Below, piece by piece: positions 12,688 through 18,301 of a DNA stretch of 64,000 bases. Under the pieces are notes generated by a model. That model saw nothing but the letters and a program-made list of their open reading frames with translations. It did not search any database and had not been told where the DNA came from. This stretch comes from an uncultured Alphaproteobacteria bacterium. GTDB lineage: Bacteria > Pseudomonadota > Alphaproteobacteria > Rs-D84. The stretch's first letter is position 1, and each line of letters starts with the position of its first letter. The translations under genes were made by a program, and so were the position numbers. The stretch covers positions 150,338 to 214,337 of the forward strand of contig CALXMY010000002.1 of the NCBI GenBank assembly GCA_944389595.1, read 5' to 3'.

Positions 12688-14421
12688 ATGTCATATCCAA
12701 TTGAAACTGTACGACATTCGCTGGCGCATGTTATGGCGGCGGCGGTGAAAAAACTATATCCAGATGTAAAGTTCGCGGGTGGCCCGGCCATCGAAAATGG
12801 CTTTTATTACGATTTTGATACTGAACACCGTTTTTCCGAGGAGGATTTTGAAAAAATCGAACGTGAAATGCGCGATTTAATCAAATCAAACGGTCGTTTT
12901 GAACAGCGTAATGTATCACTGGACGAGGCCAAGGAAATATTCGCATCCCAACCGTATAAAATGGAATGGTTGAACGAATATGATGCCGCGGGCGAGGCTT
13001 TATCGATATATACTTTCCGCGATTTTGTGGATTTGTGTCGTGGGCCGCACGTTGAAAGTTCCAAGGATTTACCGCGTGACGCGTTCAAAATTCGCACTGT
13101 TGCCGGCGCGTATTGGAAGGGCGACGCAAAAAATAAAATGCTGCAACGTATTTATGTTGATGCGTTTGCAAGCAAGGAAGAACTGGACGAATTTTTGAAA
13201 ATGCAGGCCGAGGCCGCCGCGCGTGATAACCGCAAATTGGGCAAAGAAATGGATTTGTTCCATTTTGAACCAGATTACGCGCCGGGCGCAGTGTTTTGGC
13301 ATGACAAGGGATATAAAATTTATCGCAAACTGATTGACTATATTCGTCATCGCCAGGAACGCGCTGGTTACCTGGAAATTTCCACGCCGTCGGTTATGGA
13401 CCGGTCGCTGTGGGAACGCAGTGGGCATTGGGCCAAATACGGTGAACACAATTATTCCGGAAAAACCCAGGATGGTAAAATATTCTGTGTAAAGCCTATG
13501 TCTTGCCCGGGTGGGATGTTGGTGTTTGGACAGGGTATTAAATCGTACAAAGATTTACCGATGTATTTGGCCGAATTTGGCAAAGTTAATCGGTACGAGG
13601 CCGCAGGCGGTCTGTCCGGCCTGATGCGTGTGCGCGAATTTACCCAGGATGATGCGCATATTTTCTGTACCGAAGAACAGTTGGAGGACGAGGTTGTAAA
13701 AATCCTGCGGTTTATCAAGGATGTTTATGCTAAATTCGGATTTACCAATATTTCCATGAAGTTGGCCACGCGTAAAGATTCTGAATTCCGTATCGGATCG
13801 GACGAAATTTGGGACAAGGCCGAAGGCGCATTAAAACACGCGTTGGATGCAAATGGTATCGAATACGAAATCGAACCGGGTGATGCCGCGTTTTATGGGC
13901 CGAAAATCGATAACTATCTGAAAGATGCGCTGGGGCGCACGTGGCAATGTGGCACCGTGCAATTGGATATGAATTTGCCGGAACGCTTTGATTTGTCGTA
14001 TATCGGCGAAGATGGCGAAAAGCATCGTCCGATTATGTTGCATCGTGCTATGTTGGGTTCTATTGAACGGTTTATGGGTATATTGCTGGGATCAACGGGT
14101 GGAAATTTGCCGCTGTGGTTATCGCCTGAACCCGTGGTTGTGACCCCGATTTCGGAAAAATTCCGCGAATATGCCGTTGAAATCGCGGACCGTCTGCGCG
14201 ACGCGGGTGTGTATGCACGTGCTGATTTGCGTGATGAAAAGGTTAATTATAAAATCCGCGAATTGTCGTTGGCAAAAACGCCAATCATCGCGATAGTAGG
14301 CGAAAAGGAAATGGAAAATAAATCTGTGACGCTGCGCCGTTTGGGTGTGGAAAAGCAAGAAACCATTCCCGTCGATGAATTTATTGCGCAAATGGTGGAT
14401 GCGGTTAAAATGCCTGCATAA
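12688..14421 (+). CDS. thrS: Threonine--tRNA ligase (lacks N-terminal TGS domain)
   Basis: HSLAHVMAAAVKKLYP (N2 editing domain), class II catalytic core, anticodon-binding C-terminus; 577 aa versus approx 640 in E. coli. Confidence 0.85.
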   Translation: MSYPIETVRHSLAHVMAAAVKKLYPDVKFAGGPAIENGFYYDFDTEHRFSEEDFEKIEREMRDLIKSNGRFEQRNVSLDEAKEIFASQPYKMEWLNEYDAAGEALSIYTFRDFVDLCRGPHVESSKDLPRDAFKIRTVAGAYWKGDAKNKMLQRIYVDAFASKEELDEFLKMQAEAAARDNRKLGKEMDLFHFEPDYAPGAVFWHDKGYKIYRKLIDYIRHRQERAGYLEISTPSVMDRSLWERSGHWAKYGEHNYSGKTQDGKIFCVKPMSCPGGMLVFGQGIKSYKDLPMYLAEFGKVNRYEAAGGLSGLMRVREFTQDDAHIFCTEEQLEDEVVKILRFIKDVYAKFGFTNISMKLATRKDSEFRIGSDEIWDKAEGALKHALDANGIEYEIEPGDAAFYGPKIDNYLKDALGRTWQCGTVQLDMNLPERFDLSYIGEDGEKHRPIMLHRAMLGSIERFMGILLGSTGGNLPLWLSPEPVVVTPISEKFREYAVEIADRLRDAGVYARADLRDEKVNYKIRELSLAKTPIIAIVGEKEMENKSVTLRRLGVEKQETIPVDEFIAQMVDAVKMPA

Positions 14422-15540: not shown

Positions 15541-15834
15541 ATGTTTGGACGTTTGGGCGGTTGGGAAATTCTGATAATTGTTTTGCTGGTTGTTATATTG
15601 TTTGGGCACAGCAAAATTCCCGGCATGATGAAAAATTTGGCCGATGGCATTAATACATTTAAAAAAGAAATAAAAAACAAGTCGGAAAAAAGTACTAAAA
15701 AGCCGGCAAAGGCCGGTGATGTCCCCCAGGGTGACAAAGGTGCCAAAAATCATGCAACAGATAAAAAAACGGTAAAAAAGCCGGTAAAAGCCGGGGGCAA
15801 AAAAACACCGGGCAGAAAGTCGACAACAAAATAA
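15541..15834 (+). CDS. tatA: Twin-arginine translocase subunit TatA with Lys-rich C-terminal tail
   Basis: MFGRLGGWEILIIVLLVVILFGHSKIPGMMKNLADGINTFKKE. Confidence 0.8.
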   Translation: MFGRLGGWEILIIVLLVVILFGHSKIPGMMKNLADGINTFKKEIKNKSEKSTKKPAKAGDVPQGDKGAKNHATDKKTVKKPVKAGGKKTPGRKSTTK

Positions 15835-15902
15835 TTATTATAAAAAATGTATAAAAAAGCCGGTAAATATCGGCGATGCAATAATTAGAAAATTTATTAA
15901 TT

Positions 15903-15940
15903 TGCGTGGTGCGCGTGCGTCACGCATTTTTTATTTTTTT
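15903..15940 (+). terminator. Rho-independent terminator after tatA
   Basis: GC-rich hairpin tgcgtggtgcgcgtgcgtcacgca followed by ttttttattttttt. Confidence 0.7.
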
Positions 15941-15968
15941 ATACTTAAATTTATGGTATCATATTTTG

Positions 15969-16148
15969 TGACATAACGTATTGTTGTGTCGGGGTATAGC
16001 AACCCTTATTCAAGAGCGTCTGTTATGACGTAAAAACTCCTGCTGCAGGCAGGAGGATGTGTGGAATATACAGAATACACCATACTATTATCTCTTGAAT
16101 ATAGTTGCTAACCTCCTGCCACCTTATAATTTTTGGTGGTTTTTTATT
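15969..16148 (+). ncRNA. Structured leader RNA or sRNA with alternative CCUCCUGC/GCAGGAGG pairings and 3' intrinsic terminator
   Basis: Extended -10 TGgTATCAT at 15954-15962; long helix 15995-16016 with 16092-16110; ctcctgc (16037-43), ggcaggagg (16048-56), cctcctgcc (16112-20) mutually exclusive; terminator ccacc-loop-ggtgg plus T-run 16119-16145; downstream RBS gcaggggg. Confidence 0.5.
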
Positions 16149-16168
16149 AAAAAAAGCAGGGGGACAAA

Positions 16169-17077
16169 TTGAAGTATTTTCTGTTAATATTTGCGCTTTA
16201 TGCGTTGGGTTGTGGCAAATGTGTTGCGGCCGATAAAATCGTGCCCGGTACAAACAATTTGCCATTGGGTAGGAATAGTTTACAAACAGAAAATAGTAAT
16301 TTAACCACAGAAGAATACAAGGCCGCCGCAGAATTACAGGCGGAATTAATAAATTCTGAATTGAATGAAATTGCGGCACAAATTAAACAGTTAAACCCGG
16401 ATTTATATAATCAAATGCAGTCTGAATCAGCAATGAAACAGTTATATGCGTATCGCAGTTGGTTGGCCAGGCAGGCATTTGATTGGTATAAAACACGTTT
16501 GATTGCCGATTTAAAATTAAAAAGTAAAAATACCGGGCGTAATATAAAAAAAATAGGTGAACAAAATAAAGATTATATTTTTTCAAATGAACAAGAGTTT
16601 GATGATTATATCGCTGTAAATTGTGGTGATGATAATGCGTGTCAATTTTGGCTGGATCGTGGCAAGTATGATTCGCCTGAATGTTATACCAAAGATGGTT
16701 ACCGCGATTTTGGCATATGTGAATATGCATTAGATTTTGAAGAATATACATTGTCGTTGTCACCAAATAATATATTCGTTATCAAGGGTGATGCCACAGA
16801 TAATACATTTACTTTTTATGATATTGTTTTGTCACAAACAGAACAGGAATATTTTTTGGATGTTACGGCAACGGTTGGTGATTTGTCTGAATGGATAACG
16901 CATGATAATCAATCAATAAAATTTTATAAGGCGTTGAATGAATTACAAGGACGTGAAAAAAGGCAGTTTATTAAACAATATAGTCAATCATATATGAATG
17001 GTGAAATTGATAATACTGTTCCTGGCAGTGATGTGTGGGGGGTAAGTGTTAATGGTATGGGGGTATTTAATAAATGA
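16169..17077 (+). CDS. Secreted lipoprotein, hypothetical (TTG start)
   Basis: Signal peptide with lipobox ALGCG, Cys-containing C-terminal region; AT-rich lineage-specific gene. Confidence 0.5.
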   Translation: MKYFLLIFALYALGCGKCVAADKIVPGTNNLPLGRNSLQTENSNLTTEEYKAAAELQAELINSELNEIAAQIKQLNPDLYNQMQSESAMKQLYAYRSWLARQAFDWYKTRLIADLKLKSKNTGRNIKKIGEQNKDYIFSNEQEFDDYIAVNCGDDNACQFWLDRGKYDSPECYTKDGYRDFGICEYALDFEEYTLSLSPNNIFVIKGDATDNTFTFYDIVLSQTEQEYFLDVTATVGDLSEWITHDNQSIKFYKALNELQGREKRQFIKQYSQSYMNGEIDNTVPGSDVWGVSVNGMGVFNK

Positions 17078-17805
17078 AATTAGTCCCATATTTGTTCGGA
17101 ATTTTTTTTATAAATGTAACGTTTGCCGCGGAATTGGATGTTTTATGGTTGGGTGATAACCCGTATGCATCCATTTATAATAAAACGAATTCATTACTAA
17201 TTATTAATACATACGATAAAATATCAGAATTAGAAGAAAAATATAATTTGGCGGTTGGCCGCGAACAATCATATGCAAATCGTATGCTGGGTGCGGTATC
17301 GATTGGTGCCGGTGGTATTGGTGGGATGATGTTGGCATCTGGCATTGCGGAACAATCGGCCGATGCGGCGGCGGAACGTGATATGTCTGCATATTTGGCA
17401 ACATTTCGTTGTGATTATGGGGCGGGTAAAAACATTCGTGGTGGTGAAACAAACATAACATTACCGGGTGCAAATATATTGTTAAACCTGCGGACGGAAT
17501 ATATAACATTGGCGGCGGATATAAAGGAACGAAAAACGATGTTGGGGTTAAGTCCCGGGATAGAATCAGCAGTAATAGATGATGCAACGGAATATAATTT
17601 ATATAACAACACCAGCCTAGGAAAGACAGATGGTGCGTATACATCAATATCGCGCGCATTAAGCGAGCCCGGTGGCGATGATGCGACTGAATGGGCGGCG
17701 CAAAAATCAGAATCACAACAACAAACGCAGACAGGTGGTATAGTTGGTGGTGCCGGTGTTGGCATTGGAATAATTGGTAATGTCATTATTAACGGGAAAA
17801 AATAA
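17074..17805 (+). CDS. Secreted glycine-zipper protein, hypothetical
   Basis: Signal peptide MKLVPYLFGIFFINVTFAA; Gly-zipper segments GAVSIGAGGIGGMMLASGIA and GGIVGGAGVGIGIIGNVII; ATGA overlap with upstream gene. Confidence 0.5.
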   Translation: MKLVPYLFGIFFINVTFAAELDVLWLGDNPYASIYNKTNSLLIINTYDKISELEEKYNLAVGREQSYANRMLGAVSIGAGGIGGMMLASGIAEQSADAAAERDMSAYLATFRCDYGAGKNIRGGETNITLPGANILLNLRTEYITLAADIKERKTMLGLSPGIESAVIDDATEYNLYNNTSLGKTDGAYTSISRALSEPGGDDATEWAAQKSESQQQTQTGGIVGGAGVGIGIIGNVIINGKK

Positions 17806-17831
17806 ATTGTAAAATTTTAGATAATAAAAAA

Positions 17832-17853
17832 ACGCGCGTCATTTGGCGCGCGT
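17832..17853. terminator. Bidirectional terminator hairpin between convergent genes
   Basis: acgcgcg-tcatttgg-cgcgcgt flanked by A/T runs. Confidence 0.6.
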
Positions 17854-17869
17854 TAGTTATTGATAAAGT

Positions 17870-18301
17870 TTATGGATTTCGTTTTTCGTGTTCTTCCTGT
17901 TCGTCAACGGTCATTGTTGCCAACGGACGTGCCAACATGCGTGACAAACCAATTTCATCACCAGATACAACACTGTATCCAAATGTGCCGTTTTCGATTC
18001 GTTCCAATGCCGCATTAATTTTCTTTAACAGGTTATTATCACGTTCCGACATGCGCAGATTCATGGTTATTTCCTGTTCAAATGTGGCATTGTCTGATTC
18101 GTCGCCAACGCCCGCAGAATCGGCCTGGTCAGCGGTGCGAACAGCGTTTAACGCCGATCTGGAATCCTGTAATAATTCTGCCTTTTGTGCATTTAACAAA
18201 TGATAAAAATATGCCAAATGCTGTGGACACATATATGGTTCCGATTTTTTTGGAACGTATTTTGGCGGTAATTCAATGTTTTTATAATTTTTGGTTGCCA
18301 T
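17870..18301 (-). CDS. dksA: RNA polymerase-binding transcription factor DksA (zinc-finger-less variant)
   Basis: DksA/TraR coiled-coil region with acidic tip (DSAGVGDESD); C-terminus lacks the C4 cysteines. Confidence 0.65.
   Translation of the reverse strand: MATKNYKNIELPPKYVPKKSEPYMCPQHLAYFYHLLNAQKAELLQDSRSALNAVRTADQADSAGVGDESDNATFEQEITMNLRMSERDNNLLKKINAALERIENGTFGYSVVSGDEIGLSRMLARPLATMTVDEQEEHEKRNP

Follow-up and report, generated by a model that had tools for sequence, protein, structure and literature searches.

In the pyr leaders of Bacillus subtilis, which are bound by PyrR, hairpin 1:2 sequesters the 5' strand of antiterminator 2:3, and 2:3 competes with terminator 3:4. In the pbuE adenine riboswitch, an ON-type switch with termination as the default, the terminator loses its 5' arm when the closing helix forms. 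HK022 put and Bacillus EAR are cis-acting antiterminator RNAs of 70–120 nt, which modify RNA polymerase processively and need no overlap with a terminator. The RNA described here lies in a 64,000-nt stretch of an uncultured alphaproteobacterial genome (contig CALXMY010000002.1; the whole stretch is called the window, and positions are counted from its first letter), directly upstream of a two-gene operon at 16169–17805. It has two mutually exclusive folds, both covarying among its relatives and one with a terminator. Judged from its sequence, it probably controls this operon in cis as a 5'-leader switch that works by transcription attenuation, and is one of a conserved Rs-D84 family. Its top Rfam match, below the family cutoff, was sRNA-Xcc1 (RF02221), a small RNA (sRNA) with copies directly upstream of symE and ORF6N genes (bioRxiv 10.1101/2025.06.18.660453; 10.1101/2020.03.17.996009).

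The leader RNA is a member of a family with at least 22 full-length sequences and 2 shorter variants, hosted by Candidatus Enterousia (order Rs-D84) and by related alphaproteobacteria of gut and rumen. Comparison loci are cited by number (L001 etc.). ThrRS relatives with 82–94% identity are from animal and human guts, in metagenome-assembled genomes that bear the name Candidatus Enterousia or 'uncultured Alphaproteobacteria'. An nhmmer search with the window RNA identified weakly similar sequences in five collected loci, ~74% identical in the RNA even where ThrRS was 94% identical. A covariance model built from the five sequences was then used to gather members from genomes, namely L001, L002, L004, L009 and L032 in Enterousia and L039 and L060 in another genus (ThrRS ~60% identical); the two shorter variants (L018 and L041) were also found with it. 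A metagenome scan using a pattern based on the commonest P1 core (see below) added 15 further members from rumen and human-gut samples, all confirmed with the model. Each of the 22 full-length members was folded alone, and all share one architecture. With a second covariance model, one copy was found in the window and no extra copies in 1.18 Mb of collected sequence. A repeated or mobile element within the window was rejected, as the 26-mer of the closing helix is unique there and the model gave a single copy. A phage origin was likewise rejected: viral contigs were scanned with two patterns, which matched 0 and 7 times, none confirmed by the model, and with a third in the style of Xcc1, whose 4 matches were random. 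Rfam release 15 held no family at gathering threshold for the leader RNA, a 500-nt search returned only upstream, trivial terminator-type matches, and literature searches (Enterousia or Rs-D84 with riboswitch or anti-antiterminator) did not find the family described. The family is undescribed so far, and its logic is that of a terminator/antiterminator leader with an Xcc1-like module.

All features of the leader are on the forward strand. The extended −10 element TGgTATCAT, which the initial annotation had placed at 15954–15962, is present, with a predicted start at ~15968–15970. Its position is conserved in relatives: in 15 of the 22 members a −10-like hexamer ends 6–7 nt before the first pair of hairpin P0, often accompanied by a TTGnnn −35 at a spacing of 16–18 nt. 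The minimum free energy (MFE) of 15965–16152 was −69.4 kcal/mol, against −39.4 ± 4.0 in 200 dinucleotide shuffles (z = −7.45, 0/200). The MFE fold, called state A, consists of P0, a closing helix (P1 + P1b) around internal hairpins P2, P3 and P4, and a 6-bp hairpin followed by U6. As the minus strand folds nearly as well (z = −8.0), the strand call rests on G-U pairs, promoter, U-run and gene orientation.

P0 (15970–15990) is a 5'-terminal hairpin of 8 bp with a 5-nt loop and is present in both states. The 10+7-bp closing helix was found where the initial annotation had it. P1b is a perfect 10-bp inverted repeat with 5' strand UAUUCAAGAG (16007–16016) and 3' strand CUCUUGAAUA (16092–16101); it belongs to state A only. 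The 5' strand of P1 (15991–16006) holds GGGGU (outer) and UAGCAAC (core), and the 3' strand (16104–16115) holds GUUGCUA (core) and ACCUC (outer); the core has 7 bp (15997–16003/16104–16110) and the MFE fold adds the outer 5 bp (15991–15995/16111–16115). Inside the closing helix, P2 (CGUC UGUUAU GACG, 16017–16030) is followed by an A-rich junction UAAAAA (16031–16036), whose alignment columns are invariant or near-invariant. The three reported copies of an 8–9-nt motif were all confirmed (ctcctgc 16037–16043, ggcaggagg 16048–16056, cctcctgcc 16112–16120); CCTCCTGC and its complement have just two occurrences in 64 kb, with 0.22 expected. Copy 1 (CUCCUGCU, 16037–16044) is the 5' arm of P3 and the anti-antiterminator strand, pairing with copy 2 (GGCAGGAGG, 16048–16056). 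P4 (16057–16083), present in both states, carries the conserved loop GAAUAU (16064–16069)...GAAUA (16073–16077). The intrinsic terminator (16118–16145, from sequence and MFE fold) comprises GCCACC, an 11-nt U-rich loop, GGUGGU and U6, with stem 16118–16123/16135–16140 and U-run 16140–16145.

This architecture recurs among the members. P0 is found in nearly all relatives, variable in sequence and paired, and P1 consists of GGGG or GGAG with a 7–8-bp core. The sequence of P1b is different in 21 of the 22 members and complementary in every one. After the 5' strand of P1b follow P2 (optional in the family and missing from a clade associated with XRE-type genes), the A-rich junction, P3, P4, the 3' strands of P1b and P1, copy 3, terminator and U-run. 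P4 forms in every member; its loop GAAUAU...GAAUAA is conserved, and some members have a further hairpin inserted there. In a MAFFT alignment of 12 sequences, 92% of cells of state A were paired and 14 pairs were changed on both sides, which was reached in 0/500 shuffles (a control that ignores phylogeny), and slid controls gave 32–53%; in P3, 6 of 8 pairs were changed on both sides. The terminator stem also covaries (CCACC/GGUGG, CCAUC/GAUGG, CCGCC/GGCGG, GCCCGC/GCGGGC), and stem and U-run are conserved in nearly all members. A co-oriented open reading frame (ORF) with a Shine-Dalgarno (SD) sequence starts 10–62 nt after the match in 21/21 assessable loci, leaving no space for a promoter of its own.

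In state B, copy 2 is paired with copy 3 (CCUCCUGCC, 16112–16120) instead of copy 1. This helix is the antiterminator and the closing helix of state B, and the 3' end of copy 3 lies in the terminator stem. That the middle copy can pair with the upstream or the downstream one, as first proposed from the window, was supported by the relatives: copy2:copy3 pairing is possible in 22/22 full-length members (6–10 bp, −12.6 to −20.5 kcal/mol) despite sequence change (GGCAGGAGG/CCUCCUGCC, GGUUGGAGG/CCUCCAACC, GGUUGGGAG/CUCCCGACC, GAUCGGAAG/CUUCCGGUC, GGACGGAUGU/ACAUCCGCCC, GAGGGAG/CUCCCUC). A member's own copy 3 was the best or equal best partner of its copy 2 in 8 of 10 sequence types, and own partners summed to −154.5 kcal/mol vs. 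−97.3 ± 9.7 when permuted (0/100000; ten types). On alignment A4 the copy2:copy3 columns were 90.6% paired (slid controls 33–62%). On the 22-sequence alignment, which was not structure-fitted, the helix was 93% paired with 6/9 pairs changed on both sides, and RNAalifold predicted it unaided. In L039, copies 1 and 3 are unlike in sequence and both pair with copy 2, which favours base pairing over a repeated protein-binding site. The overlap of the downstream copy with the terminator 5' arm was found in all members: copy 3 takes in the bottom 2–4 bp of the stem in every one. Copy2:copy3 is therefore designated the antiterminator and P3 the anti-antiterminator.

A second helix is specific to state B. 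In P5alt, ACUAU (16084–16088), an unpaired junction in state A, pairs with AUAGU (16101–16105), a stretch shared with the last part of P1b and the first part of the P1 core 3' strand, and the P1b 3' strand is looped out. On the same 22-sequence alignment P5alt was 95.5% paired (slid controls 36–54%); one pair is AU x10/UA x10/CG x1 and another AU x14/GC x7. As P5alt and P1b cannot coexist, the family holds covarying helices specific to each of two states. The P1 3' strand becomes a junction strand in state B, and the P1 5' strand has an alternative there, the local hairpin hp0 (GGGGU/ACCCU), in which the GGGG at the 5' end of P1 is folded back on CCC/CUCC located 3' of the P1 core 5' strand; hp0 variants in relatives are compensatory (GGGG/CCCC, GGAG/CUCC, GGGA/UCUC). 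P0, P5alt and this GGGG..CCC hairpin are not in the initial annotation. In the covariation analysis that it had proposed, the homologous regions were conserved and covarying in both folds, so the attenuator part of its riboswitch or attenuator logic is supported, and a riboswitch with a small-molecule effector is still conjectural.

The likeness to sRNA-Xcc1 lies in state B. In permissive scans RF02221 was the top Rfam hit for three members, with 33.7 bits for L157, 31.7 for L018 and 25.9 for the window (16048–16128; E = 0.006 in a small search), all three in the same register and below the gathering cutoff of 53 bits; it was the only meaningful sub-threshold Rfam match of the family. Both RNAs have a three-way junction with a 9-bp G/C-rich closing helix around two hairpins. 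Copy2:copy3 + ACC is the counterpart of the sRNA-Xcc1 closing helix GgCcGGggG/CccCCgGcC with the aCC after it, P4 with GAAUAU..GAAUAA that of hairpin 1 (AAUAcAAuA...GAAuaa), P5alt that of the second short hairpin, and UUCGAA/UUGCUA that of the UUugAg junction. Conserved nucleotides are similar, not identical (GAAUAUAcAGAAUA, UUGCUA/UUCGAA and CCACC here vs. AAUAcAAuA...GAAuaa, UUugAg and CaCCC). The leader is ~2x longer, and its extra 5' half (P0, the 5' strands of P1 and P1b, P2, copy 1), which is absent from the Xcc1 model, builds a competing and more stable fold. The 5' end of sRNA-Xcc1 is described as lying at the closing helix, whereas the conserved promoter of the leader is ~80 nt further upstream, before P0; no promoter-like site directly before copy 2 was found in a scan of the window. 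A separate canonical terminator follows the leader, and host lineage and downstream genes also differ. sRNA-Xcc1, named from Xanthomonas campestris, is borne on integron cassettes, transposons, phages or islands. The unit here is an accessory insertion in the tatA–dksA gap, and its cargo varies. No element arrays were found in the collected sequence and there were no viral matches; integrase genes were not searched for.

Further observations concern the same comparison. Terminator loops in the window (16124–16134) and in relatives are unusually long (10–12 nt), and their U-richness is conserved (UGAAUUUUUC, UGUAUUUUCU, UUAUAAUUUUU); their counterpart in the Rfam alignment is the 'aCCCuuuu' tail of sRNA-Xcc1. 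The shorter variants (L018 11369–11508, L041 11385–11559) have no P1/P1b and different internal hairpins. In both, the 3' arm of the 5' hairpin (GGUCGGGGAU) pairs with AUCCCCGACC directly before the terminator, and they share the motif GGGUCAUUU..GU.UAUGAUUUUU. As L018 scores 31.7 bits against sRNA-Xcc1, the shorter variants may be, on their sequence, intermediate between it and the long form. BLAST of the RF02221 consensus against plasmids gave spurious matches only. Plasmid SymE-family loci carry SymR/isrA-type antisense RNAs and not sRNA-Xcc1, unlike the Xanthomonas integron symE cassettes of the literature; in two small enterobacterial plasmids (L212 721–1488, L213 700–1536) a helix-turn-helix (HTH) regulator gene stands before a symE-family toxin gene with SymR/isrA-like antisense overlap.

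The proposed mechanism starts from the two covarying, mutually exclusive folds, the terminator overlap, the promoter position and the gene orientation. Transcription would start ~7 nt after the extended −10 element. In state A (OFF), P1, P1b, P2 where present, P3 (copy1:copy2) and P4 would make a four-way junction, and copy 3 would be divided between the P1 base (GGGG:CCUC) and the terminator; the terminator would form and RNA polymerase would stop at 16140–16145, giving an RNA of ~175 nt. In state B (ON), copy 2 would swap copy 1 for copy 3 (9 bp), J4/1 would pair with the nucleotides before GUUGCUA to give P5alt, and GGGG would fold on CCC as hp0. The resulting three-way junction of closing helix, P4 and P5alt would resemble sRNA-Xcc1. 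Loss of the bottom 2–4 bp of the terminator stem would then let the polymerase read into the genes, and state B would also hold copy 3 away from the SD. State B would be favoured by an effector (a small ligand or a protein) that recognises the GAAUAU/GAAUAA loop of P4 together with the junction. The obvious surface for recognition is made up of two conserved single-stranded features common to sRNA-Xcc1, namely this loop (GAAUA/GAAUAA) and a junction of the UUCGAA type.

State A with the terminator was the MFE fold in all members. Forcing copy2:copy3 cost 5.5–25 kcal/mol at full length and 3.6–20 kcal/mol on transcripts ending before the terminator 3' arm. As state A is far more stable and the 3' strands of P1b and P1 emerge before copy 3, termination is the likely default; state B would need an effector or a kinetic block of P1/P1b. 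That transcripts do terminate or read through, which way the switch works, and that there is an effector and of what kind, are all inferred.

Several points weigh against an attenuation switch. By folding energies, the gap between the states is so large that state B may rarely form unaided. The terminator of the window looks modest or weak (6 bp, 11-nt loop), and was not listed by a simple scanner because that accepts loops of 3–8 nt only; one member (L134) has no U-run. The downstream genes have no common metabolic theme that points to a ligand. All members are known from sequence and predicted folds, and the shuffle controls take no account of phylogeny. In addition, the search pattern that brought in 15 of the 22 sequences had the P1 core fixed. 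P1-core conservation is therefore partly ascertainment, and the covariation of this core rests on genome-derived members (window, L004, L009, L002, L039). Lastly, the nearest known family, sRNA-Xcc1, is reported as an 88-nt stand-alone trans-acting sRNA seen on northern blots (PMC2996969).

The leader could thus itself be a stand-alone trans-acting sRNA, in which the pairings would only tune how far a C-rich, anti-SD-like seed (copy 1 or 3) is exposed to target SD sequences; the adjacent gene would then be a bystander or just one of the targets. The fold is very stable, promoter and terminator are the RNA's own, and CCUCC-type motifs can pair with SD sequences. This explanation is considered unlikely, as a co-oriented ORF follows the terminator within a few tens of nt and without promoter space in 21/21 loci, and published sRNA-Xcc1 copies too adjoin genes downstream. 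Moreover, the seed-like copies differ by locus, which would not be expected for a common target set, and the covarying helix specifically overlaps the terminator stem. On these grounds the earlier view that the RNA 'could equally be' an independent sRNA has lost ground; it keeps some weight because the nearest known family was described as an sRNA.

A mainly translational output was given a low probability. Here copy 3 and the P1 3' strand would sequester the SD, copy 2 would act as a releasing SD mimic, and the hairpin and U-run would be minor. The SD region of the first gene (GCAGGGGG, 16156–16163) had been named as a fourth complement of the motif, and 8 bp with copy 3 are possible in the window. 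Own copy 3:SD partners outscored permuted ones (−120.3 vs. −96.8 ± 6.3; 20/100000; 12 types), matches beyond generic GGAG:CUCC were found in L039 (GGAUGUU:AACAUCC), L149 (GGAAG:CUUCC) and L004, and the member without a U-run would also fit. The signal was weaker than that of copy2:copy3, however: the complementarity is mostly generic SD/anti-SD, many members have 4–5 bp only, and the terminator stem and U-run are conserved and covarying in nearly all members. SD sequestration by free copy 3 is, from these sequences, possible as a secondary layer of the attenuation switch. The spacer between SD and start is UUGAA(A) or ACGAAA in L032, L149, L137, L119 and L136; the palindromic UUCGAA in the 3' strand of P1 is its complement, and with it the copy-3:SD duplex is extendable to two segments.

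A DNA-level element, i.e., a recombination or cassette-boundary site of the integron attC type, is very improbable. sRNA-Xcc1 occurs in integron cassettes, the unit is an insertion in the tatA–dksA gap, AAC/GTT stands at the end of the P1 core and the minus strand also folds well; however, many G-U pairs are strand-specific and favour the top strand, promoter, U-run and ribosome-binding site are conserved in the right order, two covarying alternative folds are unexpected for an attC site, each locus has a single copy with no element arrays found, and the P1 cores (UAGCAAC/GUUGCUA, UCGAAAC/GUUUCGA) do not fit RYYYAAC/GTTRRRY. Leader-peptide attenuation was rejected because no reading frame is conserved: candidate ORFs after copy 2 differ, on inspection, in frame and length (e.g., 13, 19 and 4 codons), and GAAUAU is read in different frames. 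Hammerhead or other ribozymes, T-box and cyclic di-GMP (c-di-GMP) riboswitches were rejected for want of Rfam support. On the minus strand, P3 and the complement of the A-rich junction form a terminator-like site at 16037–16055 (CTCCTGCCTGCAGCAGGAG + TTTTTA), which would face antisense transcription from the operon.

Among known systems, the attenuation switch proposed here shares with pyr-type attenuators the three-tier anti-antiterminator/antiterminator/terminator logic. Unlike in the pyr leaders, the anti-antiterminator is located inside a large junction fold and the antiterminated state is a conserved three-way junction. No PyrR loop, 9–11 (G/U)AG repeats, dual hexaloops or ribonucleic antiterminator (RAT) were found in the family alignment, and no Rfam leader or attenuator model matched; a protein effector other than the PyrR, TRAP, ANTAR and BglG types is possible. 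With pbuE the leader shares a conserved 5'-leader junction fold in which a closing helix is set against a terminator 5' arm, and probably termination as the default, but its OFF state goes beyond a mere terminator to a conserved and elaborate fold, and there is no metabolic gene theme. As in riboswitches, a covarying, structured 5' leader with mutually exclusive terminator and antiterminator precedes a co-oriented gene; the downstream genes do not converge on a single metabolite or ion, and no Rfam riboswitch model matched the leader RNA. put and EAR are likewise promoter-proximal structured RNAs before terminators and surface or accessory genes, sometimes on mobile DNA. Unlike in these, the terminator overlap covaries here, and no sequence or model similarity to them was found.

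The first gene after the leader (16169–17077, forward strand) begins at a TTG start and encodes a protein of 302 aa whose N-terminus resembles a signal or lipoprotein sequence; the second (17074–17805, forward strand) encodes a 243-aa protein with a signal peptide and a Gly-rich, hydrophobic C-terminal tail. Neither matched a Pfam family. Signal-peptide proteins without known domains are encoded downstream in the window and L001, where homologues of the 243-aa protein gene are also located 3' of the RNA, and Cys-rich secreted proteins in L002, L032, L123 and L018. The downstream proteins of L004 and L009 have a weak CgtA-like N-terminus, and an autotransporter with PMP repeats is encoded in L039, of another genus. 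In a second clade (L060, L151, L122, L149, L137, L136, L105), the downstream gene always encodes a small XRE-type HTH regulator, located among housekeeping genes in L060 and L137, the two loci with enough flanking sequence. The theme of the downstream genes is cell surface and regulation. In L154 (370–430), the sequence 3' of the RNA becomes abruptly GC-rich (ggggtatacccccctccggctgcgccgcactcccc) with no convincing ORF start; as this may be an assembly chimera, L154 was excluded from the gene association.

Upstream of the leader are the genes for ThrRS, a SPOR-domain protein and TatA. The tatA terminator (15903–15926), clear in the terminator scan, is just 5' of the leader RNA, and after the two signal-peptide genes follow dksA and thioredoxin on the opposite strand. 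Rs-D84 bacteria (Candidatus Enterousia and relatives) have genomes of 0.75–1.0 Mb (PMC12306168). The tatA–dksA spacing is 100–250 nt in most Enterousia loci, and the RNA occurs with differing cargo genes between tatA and dksA in the window, L001, L002 and L018; the RNA-plus-cargo unit behaves as an accessory insertion. The tatA–dksA intergenic region is an insertion hot spot (window 15834–17870; L003 10985–11215; L004 11040–11640), with other insertions of 1.5–4.5 kb and no RNA in L012, L023 and L026. In L004 (11040–11640), the promoter and a P0 remnant are fused to the 3' end of the homologue of the 302-aa protein gene, followed by the homologue of the 243-aa protein gene, an arrangement that looks like a deletion derivative. 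The ThrRS ORF of the window (12688–14421, 577 aa, start at MSYPIETVRHSLAHVM) has no counterpart of a ~64-residue N-terminal segment of the 641-aa ThrRS in the related genus (L060 7800–9725); as all Enterousia-type loci match from residue 1, the short form seems lineage-typical.

Gene regulation in Candidatus Enterousia and its relatives, which are uncultured gut bacteria, is almost entirely unstudied, and a leader placed before surface, secreted and regulator genes is a testable handle on control of the repertoire that faces host or community. What sets the family apart is that each of the two conformers has covarying helices of its own (P1b; P5alt and copy2:copy3); such direct comparative evidence of RNA bistability is rarely seen. 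It also links the mobile-element-associated sRNA-Xcc1 fold to terminator control and suggests that sRNA-Xcc1 be re-examined. A tentative and rather doubtful extension is that the sRNA-Xcc1 fold is, instead of a trans-acting sRNA, the ON conformer or sensor domain of a widespread cis switch, with the 5' anti-fold and terminator acquired in Rs-D84. If true, this would be a bistable orphan riboswitch or protein-responsive leader over ~ten surface, secreted and regulator genes, and the leader regulon would answer a possibly host-derived signal.

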